This document shows, in pieces, positions 1,912-39,304 of a stretch of DNA of 64,000 nucleotides. Each line of letters starts with the position of its first letter. Positions within the stretch are counted from its first letter, which is position 1. The stretch covers positions 40,111-104,110 of the forward strand of contig JAJVIK010000008.1 of NCBI GenBank assembly GCA_022072055.1, written 5' to 3'. The DNA is from a bacterium. GTDB taxonomy: Bacteria; Hinthialibacterota; Hinthialibacteria; OLB16. Both the position numbers and the translations under genes were made by a program. The notes under the pieces are model-generated. The model had not been told where the DNA came from. It ran no database searches and saw only the letters and a program-made list of their open reading frames with translations.

Positions 1912-2808
1912 GTGTCGCGGATTCCTTCTCCAATCGCAGTGAGAGCGGGTAAGAATGGGAACGGAACACCCCTCTTGGTGGCTCCAAAGGAGAGAAAGGT
2001 CTCGAGGCGGAACGGGAAGAAGATCGCGTTTGGATGGTACGGAGGCAAGTTCAGCCACCTTGACTGGCTCCTTCCGTTACTCCCATCCTGTCACCACTAC
2101 TGTGAACCATTTGGAGGCTCCGCCGCCGTCTTGATCAACCGCTCACCTTCCCCAGTTGAAACCTACAACGACCTCGATGGAGAGGTGGTGAATTTCTTCC
2201 GAGTCCTTCGCGCGAAAAAAGATTTGTTGATTGAGGCCATCGGCCTGACACCCTTTTCCAGGGAGGAGTTCTTCATTGCTTGCCAAGATCACCTAGGGAA
2301 GATTTCAGATCTGGAGCGCGCTCGACGGTTTTTTGTGCGCGCGCGTCAGGTCCGCACGGGACTTGCGCAAACCGCCTCGTTGGGCAGGTGGGCGAATTGC
2401 AAGAACACCAGCCGCGCGGGGATGAGTGGCGTGGTTTCCCGATGGCTCGGCAGTGTCGAGGCGCTGCCGGAAATCGCAATGCGCCTCCTCCGCGTCCAGA
2501 TCGAGAATCGTCCGGCCCTTGAATTAATCGATCTCTATGACAGCTCGGAGACCCTCTTCTACTGCGATCCGCCGTATCCCCACGAGAGTCGTGGGGATGA
2601 TAAAGCTTATGGCTTTGAACTAACTGATCACGAACACAAAATGTTGGCGATGCGGCTTATGTCCCTACAGGGCATGGCTGCGGTATCAGGATACCGCTGT
2701 GATCTGCTGGATGATCTTTATCGGGATTGGAGATGCATTGAGGCTCCGGTCAAACACTGTCATTCCATCAAGAAACCTCGCCAGGAGGCGCTTTGGGTGA
2801 ATTACTGA
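1912..2808 (+). CDS. Dam-family (D12 class) N6-adenine DNA methyltransferase
   Basis: FGWYGGK (cf. Dam LKWAGGK), CEPFGGSAAVLIN (FxGxG-like SAM motif), catalytic YCDPPY motif. GTG start with GGAGG RBS. GC visibly lower than flanks. Confidence 0.8.
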   Translation: MSRIPSPIAVRAGKNGNGTPLLVAPKERKVSRRNGKKIAFGWYGGKFSHLDWLLPLLPSCHHYCEPFGGSAAVLINRSPSPVETYNDLDGEVVNFFRVLRAKKDLLIEAIGLTPFSREEFFIACQDHLGKISDLERARRFFVRARQVRTGLAQTASLGRWANCKNTSRAGMSGVVSRWLGSVEALPEIAMRLLRVQIENRPALELIDLYDSSETLFYCDPPYPHESRGDDKAYGFELTDHEHKMLAMRLMSLQGMAAVSGYRCDLLDDLYRDWRCIEAPVKHCHSIKKPRQEALWVNY

Positions 2809-3911
2809 TGCAGGAGAAATATCCCTCTGGATTGATGCCCTCGGCTCGAGATCTACTGTTGCTCGAATGGACCCGTTGCTTGGTACCAGGGAGGACGGCT
2901 CCGAAATCCTCCATTCCGGGTGGGATTCAGGATGCCATTGAGCGATCCATAAACTCCACGACGTTGACCTATCGATATGTCCTGCCCACTCAAGTTCTCG
3001 CAAAGGCGGTTAACCCCGACCTCGACTGCAGGTCTGTCCAGGCGGGATCAGGACTGGAAGGCGCCTTCGACGCACGCAGCCTGTGCCACGATGTAATCGT
3101 TGAATTCGACCGAACGAACCACAGCGTGTTGGGGGGATCAAAGGAACCGTACTTGAACAACCCCTTGCGGATTCCCTCGATCTCGGGCGAAAACCGGAAA
3201 GCCCAGAAGAACAAAGATGGGTTTGACGACCTTTGTGTAGTCCTCGAATATGTCCAACAAAACCGAGGAGAGGCGACTGTTGTACTACGTGAAATTCTAA
3301 ACGCCATCCGGCGACGTCTCGACGCGGTCTCAATTGTCTATCCGGTGCCAAATAGGGTGAGCCTCAAGCAAGTTCAGGCGATCATGCATGAGTTCCTGAG
3401 AGATCGGACTGGTGGAAAAAGGCTTCAAATCATCACCGTTGCACTGTTTCGGTGCATCGGGAGCCGATTCAATCTGTTTCACCGGATTGTGGCCGGGAAG
3501 GTCAATGCATCAGACGCAAGCACTGGAAATGTTGCGGATCTCGAGTGTCTTGACGATATGGGGAATGTAGTCATGGGTGTGGAGGTTAAGGATCGTCAAC
3601 TTACCTTGCGCCAAATTGAGGACAAACTCCCCGGAGTCCGGAGCAAGGGCGTTCGAGAGCTGCTCTTCCTGGTTCAAGGAGGGATTTTTCCGGATGATAC
3701 CGGCCAAGTGGATGACCTCATTGAGAGAGAGTTCACGACGGGACAAAACCTGTATGTCCTCGAATTCCAGCGTTTCGTGGAATCCTGCCTGGCTCTCCTT
3801 GGCGAGACCGGCAGGCGGGGATTCTTGATCGAGGTGGGAATTGAGTTGGATCGACAAAGAGAAGATATCTCACATCGTCGGAAGTGGAAGGACCTGCTCA
3901 CTCGGCTATGA
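2808..3911 (+). CDS. Putative type II restriction endonuclease partner of the Dam-like methylase (PD-(D/E)xK-like motif); otherwise hypothetical
   Basis: ATG overlaps the methylase stop as TGATG, implying translational coupling. Candidate nuclease motif DDMGNVVMGVEVKD (D-x8-E-x-K). Same lower-GC island as the methylase. Confidence 0.45.
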   Translation: MQEKYPSGLMPSARDLLLLEWTRCLVPGRTAPKSSIPGGIQDAIERSINSTTLTYRYVLPTQVLAKAVNPDLDCRSVQAGSGLEGAFDARSLCHDVIVEFDRTNHSVLGGSKEPYLNNPLRIPSISGENRKAQKNKDGFDDLCVVLEYVQQNRGEATVVLREILNAIRRRLDAVSIVYPVPNRVSLKQVQAIMHEFLRDRTGGKRLQIITVALFRCIGSRFNLFHRIVAGKVNASDASTGNVADLECLDDMGNVVMGVEVKDRQLTLRQIEDKLPGVRSKGVRELLFLVQGGIFPDDTGQVDDLIEREFTTGQNLYVLEFQRFVESCLALLGETGRRGFLIEVGIELDRQREDISHRRKWKDLLTRL

Positions 3912-4064: not shown

Positions 4065-5801
4065 TCACTCCGTCCCTTCATCCAAGATCACCGCCCGTCC
4101 CGGGTGAGCGGGGATGCGCAAGTCCTCCACCAGTCTTTGGATTTCGAGCGGGGGCGGAGGGGTGAGGCGTGAAACCAGGAAGGTCACGGCGAGATTCATG
4201 AGCATGCCCACCGCGCCGATCCCCTGCGCCGATATCCCGAAGAGCCAGGGGCGCATGCCCATGAACTGGCAGCCGATGATGTAATAGGCGGTGAAGCCGA
4301 GCCCCACGACCATCCCCGCGATAGCGCCCTCGCGATTGGCGCGCTTGTCGAAGATTCCGAGCAGAATGATCGGGAAGAAGCTGGCCGCCGCGAGCCCGAA
4401 CGCAAAGGCCACCACCTCCCCGACAAATCCAGGCGGGTTGATTCCGAAGTAGCCCGCCACGCCGATGGCCGCGACCACCATGATTCGCCCCACGAAAACG
4501 CGGTGGGCCTCATCCGCCTTGGGGTTGATCAGTCGGAAGTACACGTCATGAGCGATGGAGCTGGAGATGACCAACAGGAGGCCCGAGGCGGTGGACAGCG
4601 CCGCGGCGAGTCCACCGGCGGCGACAAGCGCGATCACCCAGGGGGCCAGGTTCGCGACCTCGGGGGTGGAGAGCACGATGATGTCGGGATCGAAATAGAC
4701 TTCGTTCCGACTTTCCGGATTGGGCTGGTCAAACAGAGGGGTCTTCCCCTTGAGCGCGAAGGCGTTCCCCGGGGCGATGGTAAGGCGACCATCCTTGTCC
4801 TTGTCGATGAACGCGAGGAGTTTCGTGGATTGCCAACTCCGCGCCCATTCAAGGGCTTGGACCTCCTCGAGGGTCTTGCCGTTCAGAGAGGAGATCAGGT
4901 TGTATCGCGCGAAGGCGGCAAGCGCGGGGGCGGTGGTGTAGAGCAAGGCGATGAACAGAAGCGCCCATCCGGCGGAATAGCGCGCGTCCCGGACCGAGGG
5001 AACCGTGTAGAAGCGCACGATCACGTGCGGCAGACCCGCGGTTCCGACCATGAGCGCCAAAGTGATGCAGAGCACATCAAGCATGGACTTGTTCGCGAAG
5101 GGCTTTGTGTATTCCGAAAAACCGAGGTCGGTCTGGATCGAGTTCAGTCGGGACACCAAGTCCGAGGTTGTGAAGGCCAGCTGAGGGACAGGATTCCCGG
5201 TGAGCATGTGGGAAATGGCGAACGCGGGAATCAGGTACGCGGTGATGAGAATGGCGTATTGGGCCACTTGTGTCCAAGTGATCCCCTTCATGCCGCCAAG
5301 AACCGCGAAGAAGGCGACGATCACCATGCCGACAATCACCCCGACCGCGATGTCCACATGCAGGAACCGGCTGAAGACAATCCCCACCCCCCGCATCTGG
5401 CCGGCGACATAAGTCAGGGATACAAAGATGGCGGCGATGGCGGCCACGATCCGAGCCGGTGTCGAATAGTAACGGTCGCCCACGAAATCCGGAACCGTGT
5501 ATTTCCCGAATTTCCTCAAGTAGGGGGCGAGGAGCAGCGCCAGGAGCACGTATCCCCCGGTCCAGCCCATCAGATAGATGGAGCCATCGTAGCCCATGGC
5601 CGAAATCAGCCCCGCCATGGAAATGAACGAGGCGGCGGACATCCAATCGGCGGCGGTGGCCGCGCCGTTGGCGAGGGGCGGAACGCCATGGCCCGCGACA
5701 TAGAATCCGGAGGATTCCCGGACGCGCGAGCGCCACCCGATGTAGAGGTAAAGCAGGAAGGTGATCGTGACGACCAGATAAGTCCAGGCTTCCGTGGTCA
5801 T
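4065..5801 (-). CDS. Sodium:solute symporter family transporter (ActP / VC_2705-like, possible acetate-cation symporter)
   Basis: 578 aa polytopic membrane protein. N-terminus MTTEAWTYLVVTITFLLYLYIGWRSR...FYVAGHGVPPLANGAATAADWMSAASF is typical of SSS/ActP. Preceded by a DUF4212 small subunit gene. Confidence 0.8.
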   Translation of the reverse strand: MTTEAWTYLVVTITFLLYLYIGWRSRVRESSGFYVAGHGVPPLANGAATAADWMSAASFISMAGLISAMGYDGSIYLMGWTGGYVLLALLLAPYLRKFGKYTVPDFVGDRYYSTPARIVAAIAAIFVSLTYVAGQMRGVGIVFSRFLHVDIAVGVIVGMVIVAFFAVLGGMKGITWTQVAQYAILITAYLIPAFAISHMLTGNPVPQLAFTTSDLVSRLNSIQTDLGFSEYTKPFANKSMLDVLCITLALMVGTAGLPHVIVRFYTVPSVRDARYSAGWALLFIALLYTTAPALAAFARYNLISSLNGKTLEEVQALEWARSWQSTKLLAFIDKDKDGRLTIAPGNAFALKGKTPLFDQPNPESRNEVYFDPDIIVLSTPEVANLAPWVIALVAAGGLAAALSTASGLLLVISSSIAHDVYFRLINPKADEAHRVFVGRIMVVAAIGVAGYFGINPPGFVGEVVAFAFGLAAASFFPIILLGIFDKRANREGAIAGMVVGLGFTAYYIIGCQFMGMRPWLFGISAQGIGAVGMLMNLAVTFLVSRLTPPPPLEIQRLVEDLRIPAHPGRAVILDEGTE

Positions 5802-5807
5802 CGCGCG

Positions 5808-6071
5808 TCACTCGTCCGCGTGGTAATCGTGATCCAATCGGTCCATGCGGCGCGCATATATAAAGATGAGCGCCACGAAAACATAGATGGCCCCCTGCTG
5901 CGCGACCCAAAACCCGAACGGGACTCCAAGGAATTTGATTCCGTTAAGCGGACCCACCAATAGGACTCCCAAGCCGAGCGAAACCAAGCCCCACACCGTG
6001 AGAAGAGCGGAGATGAGTCTCTTGTTGGCGGTCCAATAGCGGATCAGGCGATCTTCGCCTCGATAGTCCAT
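5808..6071 (-). CDS. DUF4212-type small membrane subunit associated with SSS symporters
   Basis: 87 aa, two predicted TM helices. Lies 6 nt upstream of the symporter on the same strand, the usual DUF4212 plus SSS pairing. Confidence 0.65.
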   Translation of the reverse strand: MDYRGEDRLIRYWTANKRLISALLTVWGLVSLGLGVLLVGPLNGIKFLGVPFGFWVAQQGAIYVFVALIFIYARRMDRLDHDYHADE

Positions 6072-6195: not shown

Positions 6196-8586
6196 TCAGG
6201 ATGAGGAGCGCTGATCCATGTCGCTGGGGGGGGCCGATGTCGAACCGACTTGGATCTTTCCCTCTTGGATTAATCGTTCCAGTTCCTCGGGGTGGCGCTC
6301 TTCCATCGCGTGGACGGAGAGTTTCCCGGTGATCCAAGACATGTCCATCGGATATTCCTCCGGGTGGAACACGACGAAGAAGAAGTGCCAGATCAAAATC
6401 GCGAGGGTCGCGAGCCACGCCTCATAGTAATGGATCACCGCGCCGACCTCGACCCAGATTCTGGAGATTCCCAGGTGAATCGCGGCCGCCGCCGGGAACC
6501 ACATCAGCAGACCGGTGACGATCATGACCACGCCGCCCCACAGGAACGCCCAGTATTCGAGTTTTTCCGAATAATCGTAGCGGTCGAACTTGGGTTTCTC
6601 GTTGGAGAGTCCCAGGTGATAGGCCAAGTTCTTGAACAGGTCGGTGAGGTCCCGGAAGCGGAACATCAACGCCCAGAACTCGGAGCGCCCCTTCTTGGTG
6701 AAAACGATCGAACCGATATGCCACGCCAGAGTGATGATCAGGAGCACGCCCGCCGAGCGATGAACCCAGGAGCGGAGGGTCTCGCCCAGTCCCAGATATT
6801 CCTGCATCACCCGGGTGAAGATCGAGTCGGGGAAGGACAGCGAGAATCCCGTGATCACCAAGGTGATGAAGGACAGGGTCAACATCAGGTGCTGGATCAA
6901 GGCCACTTTGGGGAAGCGTTGAACATGGGGGATGTTTCTCTGGAGACGATACTTGTCGCGGATATGGCGGAAGATAATGATCAGATTGTGGAGCAGCATT
7001 CCTCCGATGGAGAAGGCGATCAGGAAGATGTAGATCTGGCGAACAAACCAGGTGGCCGTGGCGATAAAATGTTCGCGTGTGTCCGGATCGACATGGACCA
7101 TCCCGGCCACAAAGGCGGGGGTGACATTCTTGTGGCACTTTCCGCAAGTGTGGATCAGGTTGTCCGGGTGGATTTGCGAGGCCGGGTCGCTGGAGGGAAG
7201 GATGTTATGAACGCCATGACAGCTCGCGCAGTTGGCGACGGTGGTGTCTCCGAGCCGACCCGCGAGACCGTGGTAGCTTTCGAGGAAAGTCTGAACATTG
7301 TGTGATGGCAGACCGTATTTCCGATTAACCACCACCGAATCATGGCAGCGGGCGCACACCTCTTTCGCCAGGTGAGTGGAATACACGGGCGATTCGGGAT
7401 CATCATGGGCCAAGATGGTGTGTTCGCCGTGGCAATCGGTGCAGACCGGCGCCTCGCGCACCCCTTTCCTGACCGCCTGACCATGGACGCTCTTCATGTA
7501 TTCGTCGTGGATTTGCGTGTGCTGATGGCAGTTCCCGCAGGTGTCGGCGATGTGCTCGCGATTCACCGAGGAGTCGGGGTTGTTGCCGGCGAGGATCGAG
7601 TGGTGACCGTGACAATCCTGGCATGCCGCGGCGTCATCATTGACCCCGGAGAGGAGCGCGCGACCATGGACGCTCTTCCGGTACATCGTGCTGGGGGATG
7701 AGATCGGGATATCGTATTTCTTCACAATCTCCGGGTTCTCGTGACACTTGCCGCAGGTTTCGGCGATGTGCAGGCGGCTGACCGTGGAGCGGCGGTCCTC
7801 GGGCGACTGGATCTGATGCTCGCCGTGACAGTCGGTGCAGACGGGGACATCCGGGTTGCCGTCCTTGGCCAGGCTCCCGTGGACTCCCCCGTAATACTCC
7901 TCGAGCACATCCTCATGGCACTGCCCGCAGGTCTTGGCGACCTTCTGGCGGCTCACCGTGGATTCCAATGAGGTGGCGGGCTGGATGTCATGCCACCCGT
8001 GGCAATCGTTGCAGGTGGCCGCGCGCGAAGTGACATCATGGACATTCGATTGGCCATGCACGCTGATCACATAGGTCTCAATGGTCTCCCCGGAGGGGAG
8101 CGAGCGCTGTTCGATAAGGGCCTGATCCTCATGGCACTGGATACAGGTTTGCGCGAGGTTATGGTGATGAACCTTGGAGCGATCATCCGAGGACGGATAG
8201 ATCTGGTGCGAACCATGGCAGGACACGCACGAGGCGGCCTCGCCGGGGAGCCCATCCGAGCGCGCCATGCCGTGAACGCTTGCCTTGTATTTCTCCAATT
8301 CATCCTCATGGCAACCCGCGCAGTTCACCGGGGGGAGGATCTCCCCGTGTGGGAGATCCTCGATCTGGTCATGGCAATCCGTGCAGGAAAGATCGGCGTG
8401 AACCGAGCCTTCCCAGGAGGCAGGCGTGATCAGCAGGGTCGCGGAGGCCGGGACGGTCAGGTCGAACTCGGAGGGATCGCCGTGGCAAAGCAGGCAATCG
8501 GAGTCCTCGAAGGCTTTTCCCAAACAGGGACCGGCCAGCGGAAGAAGCAGTGCTCCAAGGATCCACCTCTGATTCACGCGCCTCAT
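6196..8586 (-). CDS. Multiheme c-type cytochrome (15 CXXCH) fused to C-terminal b-type cytochrome (FdnI/HydC-like) membrane domain; CbcL-like architecture
   Basis: Signal peptide MRRVNQRWILGALLLPLAGPCLG. 15 CXXCH motifs counted. C-terminal about 300 aa has multiple TM helices with conserved His (RHIRDKY, WHIGSIV, IWHFFFVVFHPEEY). GGGAGGA RBS. Confidence 0.8.
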   Translation of the reverse strand: MRRVNQRWILGALLLPLAGPCLGKAFEDSDCLLCHGDPSEFDLTVPASATLLITPASWEGSVHADLSCTDCHDQIEDLPHGEILPPVNCAGCHEDELEKYKASVHGMARSDGLPGEAASCVSCHGSHQIYPSSDDRSKVHHHNLAQTCIQCHEDQALIEQRSLPSGETIETYVISVHGQSNVHDVTSRAATCNDCHGWHDIQPATSLESTVSRQKVAKTCGQCHEDVLEEYYGGVHGSLAKDGNPDVPVCTDCHGEHQIQSPEDRRSTVSRLHIAETCGKCHENPEIVKKYDIPISSPSTMYRKSVHGRALLSGVNDDAAACQDCHGHHSILAGNNPDSSVNREHIADTCGNCHQHTQIHDEYMKSVHGQAVRKGVREAPVCTDCHGEHTILAHDDPESPVYSTHLAKEVCARCHDSVVVNRKYGLPSHNVQTFLESYHGLAGRLGDTTVANCASCHGVHNILPSSDPASQIHPDNLIHTCGKCHKNVTPAFVAGMVHVDPDTREHFIATATWFVRQIYIFLIAFSIGGMLLHNLIIIFRHIRDKYRLQRNIPHVQRFPKVALIQHLMLTLSFITLVITGFSLSFPDSIFTRVMQEYLGLGETLRSWVHRSAGVLLIITLAWHIGSIVFTKKGRSEFWALMFRFRDLTDLFKNLAYHLGLSNEKPKFDRYDYSEKLEYWAFLWGGVVMIVTGLLMWFPAAAAIHLGISRIWVEVGAVIHYYEAWLATLAILIWHFFFVVFHPEEYPMDMSWITGKLSVHAMEERHPEELERLIQEGKIQVGSTSAPPSDMDQRSSS

Positions 8587-8606
8587 GGTTGTGGGTCCTC
8601 CCGCGC

Positions 8607-11441
8607 CTATCGGTAGCCGAAGAGCATCGACCAGATGATGAACAGGGCGAGCGTCAAGCCCGTGAAAAGCGCCAGGAATCCGAAGAGTCTCGCCCAGAAG
8701 AGGAATTCCTTGCTGGGCGGCGGAACGGTCATCTCCTCAAGCTTCCCGCTTTCCTCCAGTTCCTTGTACAGATCGGGTTTATCCCTTTTCAATTCATCGG
8801 CGGGAACACAGCCGGTGAACATCACCATGTCCATGGGGAATTTATCGGGGCGGAAGTGGGTGTTGAAGAAGTGGATGGTGAAGATGAAGCCCACCGCGAG
8901 TAGCGCTTCATCGCTGTGAATGATGGTTGCCACGTTGATGATCCAACCCGGCAGGAAACGAGTGAAGAATTCCGGGAACCAGAGGATGAAGCCCGTGGAG
9001 CCGATGATGGCGATGCCCCAGAAGACCGCGAGATAGTCGAACTTCTCCCAGTAGGTCCACATGGCATAGCGCGGACGCGGCCCCATGCGCGCGAACCATT
9101 TGAGGGATTGGAAGAACTCGACCACATCCCGCCATGTGGGCGCGAGGGTGCGCGTGCCGCTGAGCATTCCCTTCCAGGTCAGTCCCTTTTCACGTTTCTT
9201 CTTGATCACATAGCCAAGGTGGAAAGCGAAGAGGATCACCATGGTGATCGCGCAGATGCGATGAATAATCCCGGCGGAGTTGAAGCCGCCCAGGAGGTTG
9301 GAAAGCCACACGGCCCACGGCATGTATGAAAACTTGAGTGTCATGCCGGTGAGGGCCAGTCCGAAGAAGGAGAGGATCATGATGAAATGGAACTGGCGCG
9401 TGACCCGGTCGAAGCGGAGAATGTATTTCTCCTCCGCCGGGCGCGGCTCCCGCTTCTTGCGGCGTTGTTCGACAAACGAGCGCGGGATCCAAGCCAGGGT
9501 GTGGATCCCGAAGAACGCGAAGGTCCCTATCAAGAGGCCGGTCATCGCCCAGAAGGTCCAGAAGAGCGCGGGGTATTTGTCGGGATCGTGGTGGGTGGCG
9601 TGGGTCAGATACCCGGCGAACTGGCGATGGGAGCCGGGATGGCACTGGGCGCAAGTTTCCACGATGTTCTCCCGGCTGAGCCTGGAGTTCGGGTCGGTCA
9701 CCGGAAGGATGTCATGCGCCCCGTGACAATTGTGGCACTTGGCGGCTCCGGCCGATCCCAGCTTGGAGACCTTGCCGTGATAGGTGTCGAAATAAGTCTC
9801 CGCCACATCGGCATGGCATTTCCCGCAGGTCTCCAGCATCCCCAATTTGAAAGCCTCGGCGTCGGTGCGTGAAATGGTGTGGGCGGTGTGGCAATCGCTG
9901 CACACGGGAAGCGGCTGCTCGGACTTGCTGACCAACGGCGAGTGGATGCTCTCATCGAAGGTCTCCTGGATGCCGTGATGGCAGGCCCCACAGGTGTTCC
10001 GAATGTTGGCCGGATTGACGCTCGATTCGGGATCGGTCTTCGGAAGGACGAGGTGGGCGGTGTGGCAGTCGGTGCAGACCGCGGTGACCAGGAGCCCGCT
10101 TTCGAGCAAGCCCTTGCCGTGGATGCTCTCGGAGTAGTTCTCAATGATCTCCGTCTGACTGCTGTGATGCCGCGCCGCGGCCTTGTGGCCTTCCTGGTGG
10201 CACTTGCCGCACAGGGTCGGCACGTTGTTGGGGAAGGTGGGTGAGGCCGGATTGGTTTGCGGAAGAGTTCCATGGGCGCTATGGCAATCGAGGCACACCG
10301 GAGCGTCGGGATCACCCTGCTTTGCCAACTGACCGTGATAGCTGCGTTCATGCTGTTGGACCTGCTCGGCGTGACAGATCGAGCAGTCCACTTTGGCGAC
10401 GACGGTCTCACAGGGTCGGTCGAGGCGCTTGTCCACGCCGGTGTGGCATTGGGCGCAGCGAACCTTGGAGTGAGTCGAACCGGCGAGGAGGTGCTGATCC
10501 ACGGAGGGGATAGGGCCATGCGCCGTTTCGATGGGCTGGGCGTGACAAGCCATGCAGTCACGGTCGCTGACCCCCTCCTCGTAATAGACCTTGCGGGCAT
10601 CATGGGGTTGGTGGCAGTCGATGCAGATCGGAATCTTATCGGGTTCTTTCTCCCAGAGCGCGCCCTCGATCACCTTGCGGTGAACTTGCTCGATCAGGGC
10701 ATGGCACTGGGTGCAGGTCTTGACCACGTTTTCCCGGTGGATGCTGGAATTGGGATCGGTGTGAGGGAGCACGTTGTGCGCGGTGTGGCAGCTGGTGCAG
10801 ACCGCGGTGACAGTCAGCCCCTTCTTGAGGACCCCCTCTCCGTGGATGCTCTCGGCGTAGTGTTGGAGGATGTCGTGTTGGGCGATGTTCCGTTCGCGCG
10901 CCACGGGAGCGTCCTCGGCGTGGCAGGCGCCGCACATTTGGGGGATGTTGATCGGATTGGTTCGGGCCTCGGGGCTGGCGCTGGGGATGATGTCATGGCC
11001 CCCGTGACAGTCCCAACAATGCGGGGCGAGCGGGTCCTTTTTCTCCACGGCCATGCCGTGCAGGCTGTGGCTGTACACGGTCTGTTCGTCATCGTGGCAG
11101 CCGGCGCAGTTGGGCGGCGGGAGCTTCTCGTCGTGGGGAAGATCCTCGATTCCGTCGTGGCAGTCGGTACAGGCGGCCTCCTGGTGGACCGAGCCTTCGA
11201 AGGACGCCGAGAGGATGAAGAGCCGGGCGGACTTGGGATCGGTGAAGTCCCAGTTGCTCGCCTCGGAGTGGCAGAGCATGCAGTCTTCGCTATCGAAGTC
11301 CTTGGCAAAAGCGGTCTCGGCGCCGAGGAACAGAAGCAGAGGAAGGCCGATCAAAAGGAAGCGCCGCGTAGGGAGCCGCGTTCTCCCGTCGGAATCGAGC
11401 GCGCGTGGAGCGCGCGTGGGGCGGTGGGGATCGTCATCCAT
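8607..11441 (-). CDS. Multiheme c-type cytochrome (19 CXXCH) fused to C-terminal b-type cytochrome membrane domain; CbcL-like paralog
   Basis: Signal peptide RRFLLIGLPLLLFLGAETAFA. 19 CXXCH motifs counted. C-terminal TM region with His-containing helices, alignable with the C-terminus of the 6196..8586 product (shared FRPDKFPMDMxxxTG motif). Confidence 0.8.
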   Translation of the reverse strand: MDDDPHRPTRAPRALDSDGRTRLPTRRFLLIGLPLLLFLGAETAFAKDFDSEDCMLCHSEASNWDFTDPKSARLFILSASFEGSVHQEAACTDCHDGIEDLPHDEKLPPPNCAGCHDDEQTVYSHSLHGMAVEKKDPLAPHCWDCHGGHDIIPSASPEARTNPINIPQMCGACHAEDAPVARERNIAQHDILQHYAESIHGEGVLKKGLTVTAVCTSCHTAHNVLPHTDPNSSIHRENVVKTCTQCHALIEQVHRKVIEGALWEKEPDKIPICIDCHQPHDARKVYYEEGVSDRDCMACHAQPIETAHGPIPSVDQHLLAGSTHSKVRCAQCHTGVDKRLDRPCETVVAKVDCSICHAEQVQQHERSYHGQLAKQGDPDAPVCLDCHSAHGTLPQTNPASPTFPNNVPTLCGKCHQEGHKAAARHHSSQTEIIENYSESIHGKGLLESGLLVTAVCTDCHTAHLVLPKTDPESSVNPANIRNTCGACHHGIQETFDESIHSPLVSKSEQPLPVCSDCHTAHTISRTDAEAFKLGMLETCGKCHADVAETYFDTYHGKVSKLGSAGAAKCHNCHGAHDILPVTDPNSRLSRENIVETCAQCHPGSHRQFAGYLTHATHHDPDKYPALFWTFWAMTGLLIGTFAFFGIHTLAWIPRSFVEQRRKKREPRPAEEKYILRFDRVTRQFHFIMILSFFGLALTGMTLKFSYMPWAVWLSNLLGGFNSAGIIHRICAITMVILFAFHLGYVIKKKREKGLTWKGMLSGTRTLAPTWRDVVEFFQSLKWFARMGPRPRYAMWTYWEKFDYLAVFWGIAIIGSTGFILWFPEFFTRFLPGWIINVATIIHSDEALLAVGFIFTIHFFNTHFRPDKFPMDMVMFTGCVPADELKRDKPDLYKELEESGKLEEMTVPPPSKEFLFWARLFGFLALFTGLTLALFIIWSMLFGYR

Positions 11442-11466
11442 GAGGGCGTTCCTTTGGGGTCAAATC

Positions 11467-13041
11467 CTAACGAGCCCGCGCGAGATCATCCGCCGGCGTC
11501 GTCCTCGCATGGGTGGCCTCGGCGCGGACCTTTGGGTAATCCGTGGGTTCGGGAGCCGCATGGCACTCCGTGCAATTCGTGGACTCGTCCAATTCCCCCA
11601 TGTCGAGCGGGTGATTGAAGGGAGCCACTTGGTAGGGGAGATCCTTCAGGAACTCGAAGCCTTCCCCCTGGCCGGTGATCACATGGCAGTTGTCGCAGGA
11701 GTGGGAAATGGCATCCCCTGTCTCCGCCTTGTGTTTGCCGTCGTGGCAACGGTAGCAGCCATCCCAGCGAAAATGTCCGGTGAACGCGGGGTGGGTGGTC
11801 CAATCGACATTCATCTCCGGGAAGAAGTTCTCCGAGTAGATCTTCTTGACCGACTCAATGGCCCTATCCACCGTGGTCGCGCGGGTCGCGTCGGAGGAGT
11901 CCGCATCCGCCAGGAGATTTTCGCGCATGCCTTTCTCGATCGTTTCCAACGCGGTTTCAGTGGTGGGATAAGCGGTCTCCAAGAGCTCCATCACGGTTCC
12001 CTTGACTCCCGGCAAGGCGACCGAAATGTCGCCATGAGAGATCGCGTCATTCACCAACTTCGTGGGATCGCGGAAGATGTGCGAGGGGCGATTGTGGCAA
12101 TCGATGCAGTCCATGGTGCGCAACTCATGGGTGGAGGAGGCAATCTCCGGCGGGCAGTCCTCCGAGGTGAAGACCGTGCTCCTGCCCTCGCGATCGGTCA
12201 TGCGCACCCAGGGGATCTTGAGGCGCTCCCGGTCGGTGGCGATGTATTCGATCTTGTAACCGCTGCTGACATGCCAGTGGATTCCGGTGGCTTTCTCCCC
12301 CTGGCCGCCGCCCACCTTAAGGAGCATGCGGATGACATAGGGGGTGTTTTCATCCGTGTTGGTGTAATGAACGATGGTCTTTTCGAGGTTCCCGCTGAAC
12401 TTGTCGGGCCAATGGCATTCCTCGCAGGTTTCGCGCGCGGGCCGCAGGTCGCGGATGGGAGTTTCGATGGGCAGATGGTAGGTCTCCAAACTGTAAGCGA
12501 ACACCTGACGAAGGCCCGAGAGCTTGCTTTTCACATACCAGTCGGCGCCCGCGCCGATGTGACATTCCACGCAGCTGACTTTGGCGTGAGGGGAATTATG
12601 GTAGGTGACATATTCCGGCTTCATGACCTGATGGCAGGTCAGTCCGCAGAACTCGGTGGATTCGGTGAAGTGGTAGCTCCGATAGGATCCGACCGCCGAG
12701 AGACAGGCGAAAACAGTCAAAAACAGCCCGAAGTACTTGATCTTGCGGGCATGCCTTGGGTCGCCGAAATTGATGACGAAGGGCTGACGGGTCTCCGGCG
12801 AGCCTTTGAGTCGCGCCCGAACGCGCAGCACCCAGGAAACCCCCACCATCGAAAGGCCGATGGAGAGAAACATCGGGGTGAGGAGATAGGTGACCACGCC
12901 GGTGTAAGGGTTGGCGTGCCCCCAAACCAGGTCATAGAAAATCAGCGAGGCCCCGACCCCCAGGGCCGAAAGGGTGAGGATCCATCCCGCCAGGCCCAAG
13001 AGGGTCCGCGCGGGGATCTTCTCGGAATTCCCGTTCGCCAT
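11467..13041 (-). CDS. Membrane-anchored heptaheme c-type cytochrome, NapC/NirT-like N-terminus (ImcH-like)
   Basis: Two N-terminal TM helices. Six CXXCH motifs plus one CGLTCHQVM (CX3CH followed by Met, resembling the NrfH/NapC heme-1 region). Start moved to the Met with AAGGAGG RBS (MANGNSEK...). Confidence 0.7.
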   Translation of the reverse strand: MANGNSEKIPARTLLGLAGWILTLSALGVGASLIFYDLVWGHANPYTGVVTYLLTPMFLSIGLSMVGVSWVLRVRARLKGSPETRQPFVINFGDPRHARKIKYFGLFLTVFACLSAVGSYRSYHFTESTEFCGLTCHQVMKPEYVTYHNSPHAKVSCVECHIGAGADWYVKSKLSGLRQVFAYSLETYHLPIETPIRDLRPARETCEECHWPDKFSGNLEKTIVHYTNTDENTPYVIRMLLKVGGGQGEKATGIHWHVSSGYKIEYIATDRERLKIPWVRMTDREGRSTVFTSEDCPPEIASSTHELRTMDCIDCHNRPSHIFRDPTKLVNDAISHGDISVALPGVKGTVMELLETAYPTTETALETIEKGMRENLLADADSSDATRATTVDRAIESVKKIYSENFFPEMNVDWTTHPAFTGHFRWDGCYRCHDGKHKAETGDAISHSCDNCHVITGQGEGFEFLKDLPYQVAPFNHPLDMGELDESTNCTECHAAPEPTDYPKVRAEATHARTTPADDLARAR

Positions 13042-13080
13042 GCCTTCCAATCCTCCTTCGCGATCAGAAACCAATACAAA

Positions 13081-14244
13081 TCATTTTCCGGGCGCGGTCG
13101 CATCCCCGACTCGCTTGCCGGGAAGCGTCTCCGGATACTGCTTGCCGTCCTCATGGCAGCCGGCGCAACCCACCGGCTTGCCGAGACCCGCCACATGGCA
13201 ATCGGCGCAGGAAGCCTCCTGGTGGAGCTCATCGAGCTCCAACCCGGTTAGCTTATGATCGAAAGCCTCCGGCATCCAGTCCGGAGCGTGGCAACTCCGG
13301 CAGTCGGGGCTGAGGCCCCCGAAGACCTTTCCGCCGACATGACAGGCGGCGCAGTCGCGCTCCGAATGGTAAGGTTTGAGCGAGAACCCGGTGCGGCGGC
13401 CATGTTCAAAACCTGCGGTCTCGCTCTGGGCGTGACAGCGGGTGCAGTTATCGGAGACATCATGGCAGGCGGAGCAATCCTCATGAGGGTCGGTTCGAAC
13501 ACGATGGTTCGGCGCGGTTCCGCCGTGGCAACGGCTGCAGTTCTCCTTGCGGTGGCACTCCACACAGGCCAGGCCGAAGAGCTGGATGTGCTCCCCATGA
13601 TGGAAGGTCACCACGCCCCCCTCGGGCATGTCCGGAGTCTTATAGACCCATTTCCCGGGCGGTTTCACATTGGGATGGAGCCGTCCCATGATGTCCGTGG
13701 CTTCGGGAGTCACCGGGATGATATGGCCGTTCTCGCGCGGCTGATGGCAGACCGCGCAATCAGTTTCATGGCTCCACTCACGGTGGCAGGAGAGGCACTG
13801 GCGGTGGTAGGCCCCTTTCAGGCCGGGCTGCCCGAGGTGTTCGGGATTTGAGGGGCCGCCGTGGCACTCCTTGCAGCCGAGGATCTTTCCGGGCGGGTTG
13901 TGGTGATGGCAGACCGCGCACCCTTGCGCCATCCCCTCCATGTCGGCGTGGAGTTTATGGGGAAAGAACACCGGTCCGTAGAGATCGCTGAGCTGATCGA
14001 GCACGAAGAAATCCGGGATATCGGCGGTCGCGGTGGCGGGGATGGGAGTGGGGGCGACCTCGTGGGGTCTGGGGCAGCCGCGGAGACACGGGGCCTCGCG
14101 AGTCGGAGCGTTACAGGCGTGACAGTCCACACAGGGGCGATTCCGCAAGTCGGCGGCCCCCTCGAACGCACACGCCGCGAGGGGCGAAAGGCACGGGAAT
14201 CCCGCGATCAGACCGGAGATGAGAATCTTGGGGAGACATGGCAT
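13081..14244 (-). CDS. Periplasmic 13-heme c-type cytochrome (cytochrome c3 superfamily, HmcA/NhcA-like), possible lipoprotein
   Basis: 13 CXXCH motifs in about 385 aa. Signal peptide with LAAC lipobox-like end. Start chosen at the third Met for RBS spacing. Confidence 0.8.
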   Translation of the reverse strand: MPCLPKILISGLIAGFPCLSPLAACAFEGAADLRNRPCVDCHACNAPTREAPCLRGCPRPHEVAPTPIPATATADIPDFFVLDQLSDLYGPVFFPHKLHADMEGMAQGCAVCHHHNPPGKILGCKECHGGPSNPEHLGQPGLKGAYHRQCLSCHREWSHETDCAVCHQPRENGHIIPVTPEATDIMGRLHPNVKPPGKWVYKTPDMPEGGVVTFHHGEHIQLFGLACVECHRKENCSRCHGGTAPNHRVRTDPHEDCSACHDVSDNCTRCHAQSETAGFEHGRRTGFSLKPYHSERDCAACHVGGKVFGGLSPDCRSCHAPDWMPEAFDHKLTGLELDELHQEASCADCHVAGLGKPVGCAGCHEDGKQYPETLPGKRVGDATAPGK

Positions 14245-14260
14245 GAGCATTCCCTCCCCT

Positions 14261-15490
14261 CTAGGCCCTTCCCGCGCGAACCGCGCGTTCTCTCGGAAGG
14301 ATCGGAAAGATGGTGACCGCGGCGCGGTAAACCAGCATCAGCGCCGCCACCATCCCCACGGTGAAGAAGATTTCCATGAGGCTGGGGAAGTAGGCCTTCT
14401 GGGCGAATGGGGGTTGATAGGCGACCAGAAACACGTTGATCCGATTGATCGCCACGCCGACAACCACGAGTGTGGAGGCCGCCAGCAGCAAATTGGGCGA
14501 ATGCCGGACGCGCTCGGAGAGCAGCATCCCCATCGGCAGCAACCCTCCGAGACAGATCTCGACCAGAAACATCCAGGATTCGAGGCTCCCCTCCAGAACA
14601 TGAACATAAGCGTCCCGGATCAGGAGATCCGCCGCCTTGGCGATCAGATAGATCCCGAGTGTGAGCACCACGAGCCGCGAGAGGGGAGTGAGCACGCTCA
14701 TCTCGGGCTTGCGGCCAAAGCTCTTGGATGCCAGGAGCGACTCGAAAATGACCATCGGGTAGCCCACCGCGATGGCGGACAAGAGAAAGAGGAACGGCAG
14801 CACGGGGGTGTACCAAAGGGGATGGACTTTGTAGGGAGCGATCAGGAGCAGACCGCCGAGGGAGGATTGATGCATGCAGGAGAGCACCACTCCCGCGATG
14901 ATGAACAGGAACATGACCTTCGAGAGGGTGCGATCAAGAAAACGCAGCAGCCGGTCCACCGGGCGATTCAACGCGGCCAGGAAGCCCGGCAGGTTCACCG
15001 CCCCGATGAAGCGCTCGCAGACCACCGGGAGGAACTCGATATAGAGGACATTCAGGTAAACCACCACGCACATGCCGACCTCGAAGAGGACCGAATTCCC
15101 TTGCCACATCGAGGGCAGCAAGGGGTGGTGCATGTTGTAATAGCGCCCCAGGTCCACGGTGAGTCCGAGGGCCACGAATGTGTAGCCCAGCATGGCGGTG
15201 AGCAGCGCGGGTCGAACCAGGACTTCGTAGCGATGCCGATGAAAGATGTGGGTGAGCGCGGCGGCGGTGGTGAATCCGCCCGCGGCCAAGGCCACTCCGG
15301 TGGCGACATCGAGCGCGATCCAGATCCCCCAGGGATGCTCTTGATCCAGGTTCGTGGTGGCGGCCAGCCCGAAAAGGAAGCGGTAGATGGCGATCCCCAC
15401 CGCAATCAGGGTGAAGGCGATCAGGAAGTAGACCCCCGGTGTCCAGAACTCGTGGCGGGCGGGCTCGGCGCGAACCGTGCTATGCGTCAT
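14261..15490 (-). CDS. NrfD/PsrC-family integral membrane quinone-interacting subunit (HmcC/NhcC-like)
   Basis: About 10 TM helices. NrfD-family sequence character (GIWIALDVATGVALAAGGF, YYNMHHPLLPSMWQGNSVLFEVG). Start at internal Met with GGAGGG RBS, overlapping the FeS gene by 11 nt. Confidence 0.75.
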   Translation of the reverse strand: MTHSTVRAEPARHEFWTPGVYFLIAFTLIAVGIAIYRFLFGLAATTNLDQEHPWGIWIALDVATGVALAAGGFTTAAALTHIFHRHRYEVLVRPALLTAMLGYTFVALGLTVDLGRYYNMHHPLLPSMWQGNSVLFEVGMCVVVYLNVLYIEFLPVVCERFIGAVNLPGFLAALNRPVDRLLRFLDRTLSKVMFLFIIAGVVLSCMHQSSLGGLLLIAPYKVHPLWYTPVLPFLFLLSAIAVGYPMVIFESLLASKSFGRKPEMSVLTPLSRLVVLTLGIYLIAKAADLLIRDAYVHVLEGSLESWMFLVEICLGGLLPMGMLLSERVRHSPNLLLAASTLVVVGVAINRINVFLVAYQPPFAQKAYFPSLMEIFFTVGMVAALMLVYRAAVTIFPILPRERAVRAGRA

Positions 15491-16406
15491 TCGTCTCGCC
15501 CTCCATGTCGTGGCTGACCGGTGGATCATCTCCATTCCGGTAAGCCCACATCATCGCGCCCAGAAGCCCATAAAGGGTCAGAGGAGGAATCCCGAACTTG
15601 AAGATGGCATGCTGGATCGGTTCGGTGAGCGAGGGCAGCGCCCCGGGACCCAACTTGAGAAACCCCAGCTCTTCAAACTCCCTTGGAGCGAGATAGAGCC
15701 AGGAGGTCCCCCCGACCTCGTGTTCGCCATAGACATGGTTGATGTACCGCTCCGGATTGTCCGCGATCTTCTTATGGGCAAGTTCGAGCAGTTCGGAGCG
15801 TTGTCCGAAGGTGAGGGCCATTGGGGGACACATCTCGGCGCAGGCTGGGATCTTGCCCTCGTGGGTCACTCGTTCGTGGCAGAAGGTGCACTTGCGGACC
15901 TGGGGTGTAAACGGTTCGTGGTACTCGTAAGTGGGCACTCCAAATGGACACGCGACCATGCAGTAGCGGCAACCGAGGCATTTCCAGGCTTCATAAACCA
16001 CCGCGCCGTTTTCCGCCACCTGGAGCGCTCCCACCAAGCAGGCCGAGGTGCAAGCCGGTCGCAGACAGTGCATGCATTGGATTTTCACCGAGATCGGCTT
16101 TTCCGGGTTGTCCGGGTTGGGGTAACGGTTGACCACCGTGAAGGAGTCCTCGTCCATTCTCCTCGGTGTGTCCAAGATCGAGAGATCCTCGAAGGCGCTG
16201 GGGGGCTGCCCCGTGAGCTCATGGGCGTGATCGCAGGCGTACTCGCACTTTCGGCAGCCGATGCATTCGGTGGTGTCCACCAGCATGCCCATGCCCTCGC
16301 CAAGCGAAGCGGAGGGGGAAGAGGCATCCGACCTGTCGGGGGAGGCCACCGCTCCAGCGGCGCCCAAACCGAGGACCTGAAAGAAACCTCTGCGGCTGAC
16401 TTTCAC
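15480..16406 (-). CDS. Tat-exported 4Fe-4S ferredoxin-type iron-sulfur subunit (HmcB/NhcB/NrfC/PsrB-like)
   Basis: Four Cys clusters (CIGCRKCEYAC, CMHCLRPACTSAC, CLGCRYCMVACP, CTFCHERV...CAEMCP). Tat motif SRRGFFQVLGLGAAGAVAS. Start reassigned to GTG at 16406 (GAGGAGG RBS 8 nt upstream), giving MKVSRRGFF. The ORF-track N-terminal extension is AT-rich promoter DNA. Confidence 0.75.
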   Translation of the reverse strand: MKVSRRGFFQVLGLGAAGAVASPDRSDASSPSASLGEGMGMLVDTTECIGCRKCEYACDHAHELTGQPPSAFEDLSILDTPRRMDEDSFTVVNRYPNPDNPEKPISVKIQCMHCLRPACTSACLVGALQVAENGAVVYEAWKCLGCRYCMVACPFGVPTYEYHEPFTPQVRKCTFCHERVTHEGKIPACAEMCPPMALTFGQRSELLELAHKKIADNPERYINHVYGEHEVGGTSWLYLAPREFEELGFLKLGPGALPSLTEPIQHAIFKFGIPPLTLYGLLGAMMWAYRNGDDPPVSHDMEGETNDA

Positions 16407-16470
16407 GGGGGCGGCCTCCTCGTCGCTGACCGGAAGGGGAGGAATCAACTTATTCCGGTACTGTATTGAT

Positions 16471-16499
16471 ATTATAGGTCTCTTAGAGTCCGCATTCAA
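16471..16499 (-). promoter_or_regulatory. Near-consensus sigma70-type promoter (TTGAAT-17 nt-TATAAT) for the cytochrome operon
   Basis: Minus strand reads cTTGAATgcggactctaagagaccTATAATatc. Lies in a locally AT-rich 60 nt stretch of GC-rich DNA, about 60 nt upstream of the reassigned GTG start. Confidence 0.5.
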
Positions 16500-21645: not shown

Positions 21646-22656
21646 CTACGGCGTGGTCGCGGGAAAAACCTCGCGGTCGTAGACAATAATGGCCGACTTC
21701 TTCAACTCCTCCAAAGCCTTGCGCTGCTCTTCAAGGGCGATTCGTCGGCGCACCAGGTTGTAGATGCTCTGCTTGCTCTTGACCTTCGCGATGCAGAACC
21801 ACCCGGTGATGCGGATGACTTGAGGATTCACCTGTCCGGCGTCCAGCTCGAAGAGCGGCGCGAATTCGGGGAACGGGTTGGTGGGGCTGATCAGATCGAG
21901 GAACCCCTTGCGACCCTTGGATTGGTCGTGCTGGGAAAACTCCTCCACCAACTGTTCGAAGGGCTCCCCCACGCGAGCGCGCGCCAGAACCTTTTCGGCC
22001 TTGCGCTGGACTGCCTCCACCGCCGCCGGATCGGATTCGTCGGGAATCCGTAGGAAGACAAACTGAACCTCCGGGGCTCCGCCTTCCTCGAGGACCCCCT
22101 TGTGCTCCTCCAGATACTTGTCGACCTGAGCCTGGGACACCGGAGTGAGGAGGTACTCATCGATCCAGGCTTGACGCGCCTGTTGAACCAGAATCTGGCG
22201 CTTTCGGTCCGCGATCATCGCCGCGCGGAACTCTTCCACGGTCTGGCTCTCTTGGGCGAGTCGCGCGCGAAATTCGGCCTCGCCGACCTGTTTGCGAAGC
22301 TGGTCGAGTTGCTCATCCACGGTCTTCTCGGCGAATCGAGCGGCGGTCTCCTCACGGAGGTCTCCCTTGAGCCGGTTGACGATGAGCTCCTCCTCGATCA
22401 GATCCTCGATCGCGCGGCGCTTCACAGCTCCTTCCGGGGGAACCTTGCCCTTGGTGGGGCTGTCGGGGCGGGCGTAAAGGCGATTCAGGTCTTGGACCTT
22501 CTGATTGAGCTCGCGAAGGGTGATGACCGAGCCATTGACCGAGGCGACCACGCGGTCGAGGGTCTGAGCAGCGGAGCTCGATGTCAGGACGCAGCTGATC
22601 GCGGCCAATCCGCGCAGGATCCGAGTCGTGCCGAACTTGTTGAATGTCATCCACAT
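21646..22656 (-). CDS. SurA-like periplasmic chaperone / parvulin-type peptidyl-prolyl cis-trans isomerase
   Basis: Signal peptide MTFNKFGTTRILRGLAAISCVLTSSSAA. SurA N-domain-like helical region followed by PpiC/parvulin-like segment (GFLDLISPTNPFPEFAPLFELDAGQV...GWFCIAKV). Confidence 0.65.
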   Translation of the reverse strand: MWMTFNKFGTTRILRGLAAISCVLTSSSAAQTLDRVVASVNGSVITLRELNQKVQDLNRLYARPDSPTKGKVPPEGAVKRRAIEDLIEEELIVNRLKGDLREETAARFAEKTVDEQLDQLRKQVGEAEFRARLAQESQTVEEFRAAMIADRKRQILVQQARQAWIDEYLLTPVSQAQVDKYLEEHKGVLEEGGAPEVQFVFLRIPDESDPAAVEAVQRKAEKVLARARVGEPFEQLVEEFSQHDQSKGRKGFLDLISPTNPFPEFAPLFELDAGQVNPQVIRITGWFCIAKVKSKQSIYNLVRRRIALEEQRKALEELKKSAIIVYDREVFPATTP

Positions 22657-22663
22657 AAGAGAG

Positions 22664-22696
22664 CGGCCCCCCGAATCATGATGACTCGGGGGGCCG
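22664..22696 (-). promoter_or_regulatory. Strong GC hairpin between the giant gene stop and the PPIase start
   Basis: cggcccccc-15 nt loop-ggggggccg, perfect 9 bp GC stem. Followed on the minus-strand transcript by a CUCUCUUAU stretch. Confidence 0.4.
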
Positions 22697-22724
22697 AATT
22701 GGGCAACCGGTTCGCTCAATGCGA

Positions 22725-39107: not shown

Positions 39108-39304
39108 GGCTTGCCTCCTTTGACTCATGTTCGGACCGCTTGAGTTATTCACAGGGGGTGTTGAAAACAAGGTGGGCGCGGCAATACAACAGTGACCAGA
39201 CACAGCTCGTCTCCTTCGATTCGAACCAAATCCCTCTTCCTCGCATTGACGCGCGGAAGAACCCCATCCCAGAACAACGGCAAAGAAAGGACACTGATCA
39301 GCGC

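Follow-up and report, generated by a model that had tools for sequence, protein, structure and literature searches.

A six-gene operon from an uncultured Omnitrophota bacterium that unites ImcH-, CbcL- and NrfD-type electron-transfer modules

The window analysed here is a 64-kb stretch of contig JAJVIK010000008.1 (positions 40,111 to 104,110 of the forward strand; assembly GCA_022072055.1). It contains six consecutive minus-strand open reading frames (ORFs), g1 to g6, which encode iron-sulfur (FeS), NrfD-type, ImcH-type and CbcL-type electron-transfer proteins (Table 1). An ORF and translation check showed all six to be intact, with no frameshifts and no internal stops, and the possibility that the haem-rich ORFs are frameshift artefacts can be set aside. 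Motif counts give 54 c-haem sites for the operon (13 in g3, 7 in g4, 19 in g5 and 15 in g6) and, together with Pfam and NCBIfam matches, agree with the domains and the approximately 54 haems proposed in the initial annotation of the locus. The encoded proteins are identical to entries of a 'Candidatus Omnitrophica/Omnitrophota bacterium' metagenome-assembled genome (MAG; NUN96571, NUN96865-7) and identical or near-identical to those of a second MAG (GHCLOJNM_01875-80), which is labelled only 'bacterium'. GenBank annotation of the matching MAG proteins is generic or 'hypothetical protein'.

Table 1. Genes and candidate promoter of the operon, in window coordinates.
Feature	Position	Strand	Description
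Promoter candidate	16471..16499	-	sigma-70-like TTGAAT-17 nt-TATAAT; 10/12 matches; divergent intergenic region 5′ of g1; inferred
g1, HmcB/HybA/FdnH-like subunit, 308 amino acids (aa)	15480..16406	-	predicted periplasmic four-[4Fe-4S] ferredoxin-like subunit exported by twin-arginine translocation (Tat); Pfam Fer4_11
g2, HybB/HmcC-like subunit, ~409 aa	14261..15490	-	NrfD-family polytopic membrane subunit; Pfam NrfD
g3, 13-haem cytochrome c, 387 aa	13081..14244	-	predicted periplasmic; signal peptide; 13 CXXCH; Pfam Cytochrome_C7
g4, ImcH-family inner-membrane cytochrome, 524 aa	11467..13041	-	three transmembrane (TM) helices, one CX3CH, six CXXCH
g5, long CbcL/MtrH/MtoC-type fusion, 944 aa	8607..11441	-	Sec signal, 19-haem periplasmic domain, 6-TM FdnI-like dihaem cytochrome b
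g6, shorter CbcL-type paralogue, 796 aa	6196..8586	-	signal peptide, 15-haem domain, FdnI/HydC-like cytochrome b

Position 16499 is not a start codon and is instead the first base of a promoter-like −35 hexamer (TTGAAT). The first gene begins at a GTG codon preceded by the ribosome-binding site GAGGAGG, and its product matches MCG3197394.1 and NUN96571.1 exactly, confirming this start. Alignment with the orthologue on a related metagenome contig (L083) makes the ATG at 15490 the most likely start of g2, which then overlaps g1 by 11 nt. The product of g3 equals MCG3197392.1, and that of g4, which starts with ATG, has the same length as MCG3197391.1. With these corrected starts, the intergenic distances from g1 to g6 are −11, 16, 39, 25 and 20 nt; the tight packing described initially stands, but the values given with it (gaps of 6–25 nt or overlaps) do not. 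The six genes form a real operon and are probably transcribed together. The near-consensus site initially taken to drive them from a single promoter is present, in the divergent intergenic region shared with the adjoining pfkB kinase gene. However, three promoter-like sites were found upstream of g1 where 2.5 are expected by chance, and the consensus used may not be that of Omnitrophota. We therefore regard a promoter at 16499–16471 as plausible but undemonstrated, and dropped the claim of a statistically supported one. A candidate intrinsic terminator 3′ of g6 was also rejected, with a weak pattern match and a spacer that folds no better than shuffled sequence (z = −0.18).

Judged by its sequence, g4 is a member of the ImcH family (Levar 2014, PMC4251993; Zhong & Shi 2018, PMC6295460), as had been proposed. 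The published hallmarks of the family are three TM helices, a membrane-adjacent CX3CH motif, six CXXCH motifs and homology to NapC/NirT (Zhong & Shi 2018, PMC6295460), and g4 has all of them. Its hydropathy profile peaks at residues 17–35, 48–66 and 101–119 (524-aa numbering). The CX3CH motif at residue 143 adjoins the membrane domain and is followed by CXXCH motifs at 168, 217, 323, 440, 460 and 501 (535-aa numbering), and all of these haem motifs are invariant among 21 homologues. Residues 117–200 match Pfam Cytochrom_NNT (PF03264; E 3.1e-8), and the protein also matches the NrfH model TIGR03153 (E 1.7e-13) and, in the PDB, NrfH (2j7a_C). The homologues retrieved number over 7,800, are about 500 aa long and share about 45% identity across phyla; identity to ImcH of an Oryzomonas (Geobacterales) MAG (L069) is 39% over 497 aa.

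The C-terminal domains of g5 and g6 had been described as b-type cytochromes, which would make these proteins CbcL-like, and this assignment was upheld. Both proteins match Pfam multihaem families and Ni_hydr_CYTB (PF01292), the latter with an E-value of 8.9e-16 for g6, which also matches TIGR01583 (E 5e-13). An AlphaFold2 model of g5, built with 57 homologues, has a mean predicted local distance difference test score (pLDDT) of 76, rising to 85–90 in the membrane domain, and its sole significant PDB match in a Foldseek search is FdnI (1kqf_C; E 2e-4, probability 1.00, target TM-score 0.78). In a sequence alignment, H684, H726, H841 and H856 of g5 are paired with the FdnI haem ligands H18, H57, H155 and H169, and all four are invariant across 57 sequences; the putative equivalents in g6, read from sequence alone, are H566, H610, H718 and H733. 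Approximately six TM helices are predicted for g5 by hydropathy and by the model, and five to six hydrophobic segments for g6 by hydropathy. These matches and the model point to genuine FdnI-type cytochrome b domains in both proteins. The 19-haem domain of g5 additionally contains 18 invariant histidines outside the haem motifs, about one per haem, and its haems appear to be bis-histidine ligated.

The two fusions share 28–35% sequence identity with each other. Closer relatives of g5 are proteins of about 920 aa from Hydrogenedentes, Zixibacteria and others (55–81% identity), and g6 has orthologues at four other loci (L001, L083, L084 and L091; 63–75% identity). The counts of 19 and 15 haems, initially presented as exceptional, are within the range of the family, since CbcL homologues with 3–23 CXXCH motifs and 416–1034 aa, including 19-haem proteins, have been listed (Zhong & Shi 2018, PMC6295460). 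The same study catalogued three CbcL and three ImcH homologues from Omnitrophica, and thus both the haem counts and the presence of the two families in this phylum were already known. Growth of the CbcL family by tetrahaem duplications, giving '3+4n' haems, was considered and rejected, as the homologues include proteins with 9, 13 and 21 motifs and a BLAST comparison revealed no repeats within g5 or g6. Among longer relatives are CbcL-type proteins of 1,566 and 1,636 aa (P0294, P0299).

The first three genes encode an FeS–NrfD–13-haem trio. The g1 protein has 16 cysteines in four ferredoxin-type motifs, an RRGFF Tat signal and a C-terminal hydrophobic tail. It matches Fer4_11 with an E-value of 3.5e-16, scores 325 bits against the NCBIfam model of HmcB (cut-off 420) and 237 bits against that of HybA (cut-off 263), and its closest solved relative is FdnH (PDB 1kqf_B; E 4e-33). 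The g2 protein matches NrfD (E 1.1e-20), with about 10 hydrophobic segments by hydropathy and scores of 350 bits for HybB (cut-off 450) and 279 bits for HmcC (cut-off 550); it presumably carries the quinone/quinol site. The g3 protein consists of one c3-type tetrahaem domain of the HmcA/NhcA kind and c7-type repeats, and all 13 of its CXXCH motifs are invariant among 48 homologues. A phmmer search matches it to HmcA (PDB 2e84; E 4e-17). Its Foldseek matches are NhcA and HmcA, over only about 116 aa at 30% identity, which corresponds to one c3-type domain, and its NCBIfam scores are 41.7 bits for HmcA (NF045713; cut-off 400) and 31.8 bits for NhcA (NF045784; cut-off 640). An LAAC motif would suggest a lipoprotein, but the orthologues lack the cysteine, and a lipid anchor for g3 was dropped for this reason. 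Close solved structures were not found for g2, g4 or the haem domains of the operon.

Proteins of the g3 family are about 380 aa long with 13 haems (176 cluster representatives at E ≤ 1e-30), and in relatives the 13-haem gene is always located 3′ of the FeS–NrfD genes. The trio is an independent conserved module that has had no name so far; in the literature text searched, no description of a named complex that matches it was found. Separately, cytochromes of 1,000–2,300 aa repeat the C-terminal 60–70-aa unit of g3 up to 32 times (P0373, P0375, P0376). Paralogues of g3 and g4 were also found in the same organism. The second ImcH (L002 and L090, GCA_013360775.1) shares 48% identity with g4 and is encoded beside an extracytoplasmic function (ECF) sigma factor gene, and a second 13-haem protein (P0127, GHCLOJNM_00035), encoded on another contig, shares 62% identity with g3. 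The genome therefore holds more such modules than the window shows. The neighbourhood of P0127 is uninformative, as its contig breaks at the gene, and exact-sequence look-ups with P0127 and with g6 returned no matching contig record.

A scan with an ImcH alignment, using one genome per GTDB species, gave 80 loci from Acidobacteriota, Verrucomicrobiota, Kiritimatiellales, Bacteroidota, Ignavibacteriota, Calditrichota, Latescibacteria, KSB1, Sumerlaeota, Binatia, Omnitrophota and Syntrophus. Fifty-four loci were evaluable, their contigs extending 3 kb or more to each side of imcH. A CbcL-like gene is present on the same strand within 600 bp of imcH at 42 of the 54 evaluable loci, and within 10 kb at 48. 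The proximity of ImcH and CbcL genes, which had been regarded as unusual, is thus the majority arrangement outside Geobacter. Acidobacteriota mostly have an 11-haem cbcL followed by imcH, and Verrucomicrobiota mostly imcH followed by 11-haem and 9-haem cbcL genes. Paralogues of both the g5 and the g6 type are found beside imcH at 12 or more loci (e.g. L004, L040, L044, L052, L060 and L067). No literature text on imcH–cbcL adjacency or its prevalence was found beyond PMC6295460, whose figures 5 and 7 may show neighbourhoods.

The complete six-gene order is repeated on the related contig L083, with 61–80% protein identity. Other loci have parts of it: five genes without g5 (FeS, NrfD, 13-haem, ImcH and 15-haem CbcL) in L084; two FeS–NrfD pairs followed by 13-haem and ImcH genes, without CbcL, in L085; the trio standing alone in a Zixibacteria MAG (L086); the trio on a contig that ends directly after it in a Hydrogenedentes MAG (L087); ImcH with 15-haem CbcL in L001; ImcH alone in L002; and a g6 orthologue alone in L091. 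A metagenome scan with g6 gave five loci, none with the full operon. In L085, the public annotation of positions 8202-9404 is a 381-aa minus-strand ORF with no Pfam match, and the plus strand encodes a 13-haem homologue of g3 (56% identity); the public call is probably a strand error in the source annotation.

These neighbourhoods bear on the initial suggestion of a single periplasm-facing supercomplex. The tight packing and probable co-transcription of the genes, the recurrence of the same order in L083 and the adjacency of ImcH- and CbcL-like genes at most evaluable loci in many phyla would all fit an obligate complex of the six products, and the adjacency makes some physical or functional coupling conceivable. 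However, the module types are found without one another in L086, L002, L091 and L085, and lineages differ freely in the order and copy number of the genes. Moreover, ImcH and CbcL of Geobacter work independently, single mutants having separate phenotypes (PMC5322298). Given this shuffling of modules from genome to genome, we consider an obligate supercomplex very unlikely.

Further multihaem genes are present within 10 kb at 42 of 87 loci, and at three loci they resemble outer-membrane conduits (L084, 882-6466; L088, 6257-9688; L089, 6135-9642). Directly upstream of the cluster in L084 are genes for a 10-haem protein with an MtrC/MtrF domain, a 456-aa protein, a 13-haem lipoprotein and a c554-like tetrahaem cytochrome. 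The 456-aa protein has no Pfam match and ends in ...GQAF, an aromatic terminus as in outer-membrane barrels. In L089, a Pcc-like trio lies between imcH and two cbcL genes and encodes a 6-haem lipoprotein, a 14-haem lipoprotein and, between these two, a protein of 530 aa with the C-terminus ...IRF. L088 has a similar trio, with a middle protein of 522 aa (ending in ...RF) and an MtrC/MtrF-domain cytochrome nearby. These gene sets are probable porin–cytochrome conduits. As L089 also has FeS–NrfD–13-haem genes upstream, all three module types and a probable conduit are located in one island in another lineage.

This linkage to MtrC-like and porin–cytochrome-like genes in relatives is the main reason for assigning the operon to extracellular electron transfer. 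We consider it fairly likely that the operon encodes, as four parallel modules, the part of an electron-transfer chain that lies at the cytoplasmic membrane of an uncultured member of the Omnitrophota. The chain would be extracellular or, at the least, periplasmic, and the operon probably serves the respiration of minerals or partners outside the cell. The precedent is Geobacter, which uses ImcH and CbcL as menaquinol oxidases in the reduction of extracellular acceptors (PMC4251993, PMC5322298).

In the proposed mechanism, the operon would supply four separate modules, transcribed together, that link the quinone pool to the periplasm. In the first, NrfD-type g2 would exchange electrons with menaquinol and the clusters of g1 would relay them to the 13-haem g3. 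In the second, g4 would oxidise menaquinol at the periplasmic face, at a NapC/NirT-like site, and pass electrons along its seven c-haems. In the third, the dihaem cytochrome b of g5 would move electrons across the membrane between a cytoplasmic-side quinone site and the attached 19-haem wire; in FdnI, likewise, electrons cross the membrane between a donor in the periplasm and a menaquinone site on the cytoplasmic side. The fourth, g6, would be a second CbcL-type fusion with a 15-haem wire. All four would deliver electrons to cytochromes of the periplasm or outer membrane whose genes lie in other parts of the genome.

The modules would most likely act in parallel as alternative gears, each with its own operating potential and energy yield, like ImcH and CbcL of Geobacter. 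ImcH is reported to oxidise menaquinol with proton release on the periplasmic (P) side (bioRxiv 10.1101/2023.05.03.539133), and for CbcL, oxidation of quinol on the N-side has been proposed, at a cost in membrane potential that permits the use of lower-potential acceptors (bioRxiv 10.1101/2023.05.03.539133; PMC5322298). In a further preprint (bioRxiv 10.1101/2022.08.31.506072), expression of CbcL is described as constitutive, with potential gating the protein itself; on that description, co-transcription of ImcH and CbcL would fit alternative gears and no supercomplex is needed.

The families themselves allow for the opposite direction of flow. The modules would then act as quinone reductases in electron uptake, fed by Fe(II) or minerals through a conduit, by a partner or host cell, or, by way of the cytochrome pool, by a hydrogenase or formate dehydrogenase of the periplasm. 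With the FdnI-type b domain reducing menaquinone on the cytoplasmic side, proton-motive force would be generated by a redox loop like that of E. coli Fdn-N. The b domain of g5 keeps the complete FdnI ligand set, HybA/HybB and HmcB/HmcC are the families that g1 and g2 match best, and a related Zixibacteria cluster has been read as iron oxidation (PMC3903129). Against uptake, ImcH homologues have so far been found only in reducers of extracellular acceptors (PMC6295460), and the MtrC/MtrF-domain extracellular cytochromes beside the clusters of relatives are typical of reducers. Neither a hydrogenase nor a formate dehydrogenase gene was found in or beside the operon. Uptake is in our view an unlikely function.

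Outward transfer could also end in the periplasm. Soluble acceptors that reach it (chelated metals, humic or quinone analogues, sulfur or selenium species) might be reduced by the multihaem domains themselves, acting as terminal reductases with no need for a conduit. The trio of L086 and several ImcH loci have no conduit nearby, and Geobacter requires ImcH for soluble Fe(III) citrate (bioRxiv 10.1101/2023.05.03.539133). The invariant non-motif histidines of g5 suggest six-coordinate transfer haems and not open catalytic sites, however, and the linkage to porin–cytochrome-like trios and MtrC-like proteins recurs in relatives. We consider this possibility highly improbable.

Several points nevertheless weigh against outward transfer to extracellular acceptors. 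In agreement with the initial annotation, no outer-membrane porin–cytochrome genes were found in the window, nor any ORF of at least 100 aa with a CXXCH motif besides the operon genes, and the soluble-acceptor explanation gains from this result. The putative porins of the relatives are recognised only from their position, lack of a Pfam match and C-terminal phenylalanine. The CbcL relatives MtoC and MtrH are found in Fe(II)-oxidising bacteria as well as in reducers (PMC6295460), and the direction of electron flow is unreadable from sequence; Hmc/Nhc-type modules of sulfate reducers have been linked to hydrogen use (PMC4215793). Both facts count in favour of uptake. In Omnitrophota these families, g4 included, are known from sequences alone. 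Finally, the promoter is statistically unsupported and no convincing terminator was found 3′ of g6, and the ends of the transcript are putative.

A broader and unlikely scenario departs from the Geobacter model of two independent pathways and would regard imcH and cbcL as an ancient functional unit that ten or more phyla have inherited jointly. Fusion of this unit with the Hmc-like trio, in Omnitrophota and in lineages resembling Hydrogenedentes, would then have produced a quinol-oxidase hub of three types. Its wires of 15–19 haems would be long enough to span a large part of the periplasm and take the place of soluble shuttles, and in ultra-small members of the Omnitrophota they might exchange electrons with a host or partner cell.

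The operon contributes genomic evidence for a possible electron exchange between the uncultured phylum Omnitrophota and minerals or partner cells. The adjacency survey is the more useful result: outside Geobacter, imcH and cbcL-type genes are usually direct neighbours, and often there are two cbcL paralogues and outer-membrane conduit genes close by. It suggests that G. sulfurreducens, with its separate potential-specific pathways, has a derived arrangement of an older gene set that was inherited together. Known mechanisms are unchanged by the operon, which supplies concrete candidates for heterologous tests.

Beyond pfkB on one side, the operon is flanked on the other by genes for a DUF4212 protein and a sodium:solute symporter (SSF), located on the same strand 124 nt downstream of g6 (4065-6071, minus strand). 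Read-through into this pair is possible, as no convincing terminator was seen between, and the pairing is not kept in L083. Elsewhere in the window, a giant minus-strand ORF of 5,492 aa (22725-39203) has weak Ig-like Pfam matches only (Big_13, Big_3_3). It fits an assignment to Omnitrophota, from which giant surface proteins have been reported, and its product may be one of these. Just past its stop codon, on the same strand, is a gene for a SurA-like peptidyl-prolyl isomerase (21646-22719). Two restriction-modification loci are also present, one with a D12-class adenine methyltransferase and a SacI-like endonuclease (1912-3911, plus strand) and one with an Eco57I/MmeI-like fused methylase-endonuclease of 1,095 aa (49302-52589, minus strand).

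The components of the operon can each be compared with characterised systems. The haem motifs of g4 (132, 157, 206, 312, 429, 449 and 490 in 524-aa numbering) mirror those of Omnitrophica ImcH homologues (135, 159, 208, 317, 434, 454 and 494; PMC6295460), although g4 is only about 39–45% identical to homologues from other phyla. It also differs from ImcH of G. sulfurreducens (GSU3259) in genomic context, being co-operonic with CbcL- and NrfCD-type modules, whereas imcH is apart from cbcL in that species.

With the CbcL/MtrH/MtoC family, g5 and g6 share an N-terminal periplasmic multihaem domain and a predicted 6-TM HydC/FdnI-like dihaem cytochrome b with conserved histidines, and g5 has the same motif spacing as the 19-haem proteins of about 930 aa tabulated in PMC6295460. 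They differ from Geobacter CbcL (GSU0274), which has 9 haems, in their haem number and in their presence as two tandem paralogues, g5 falling in a strongly conserved long subfamily and g6 in a more divergent short one.

The initial description of g1–g3 as Nhc/Hmc-like holds as a resemblance. As in Hmc and Nhc of Desulfovibrio, a periplasmic multihaem cytochrome is combined with a four-cluster FeS subunit and a membrane subunit of the NrfD type; g1 and g2 have HmcB and HmcC among their matches, g3 shares with HmcA/NhcA one matching c3-type domain, and, as in Nhc, the FeS and NrfD subunits are present without HmcE/F-type genes. However, the cytochrome has 13 haems, compared with 16 in HmcA and 9 in NhcA, its gene is last in the order FeS–NrfD–cytochrome whereas the Hmc/Nhc cytochrome gene is first, HmcD/E/F-type subunits are absent from the operon, all NCBIfam scores are below the equivalog cut-offs, and the host is no sulfate reducer.

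The trio also resembles Cbc4 of G. sulfurreducens (CbcSTU, GSU0068-0070), an inner-membrane candidate quinol:cytochrome c oxidoreductase (bioRxiv 10.1101/2025.04.14.648717), in combining a cytochrome c, a four-[4Fe-4S] protein and an integral membrane subunit. CbcS is, however, a membrane-anchored tetrahaem protein of the NapC/NirT type, whereas g3 is a 13-haem c3/c7-type protein with an N-terminal signal only. Among E. coli proteins, g1 is nearest to FdnH in the PDB, g2 scores best against HybB, and the modelled membrane domain of g5 superposes on FdnI with the four haem ligands retained. In contrast to formate dehydrogenase-N and hydrogenase-2, no molybdopterin or [NiFe] catalytic subunit is encoded nearby, and multihaem cytochromes are present instead. 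No paper describing the six-gene fusion was found in the literature searched, in keeping with the initial view that an operon uniting all three module types was previously undescribed. What is new is this particular six-gene arrangement; its parts are known and widespread, and it is no new kind of system.

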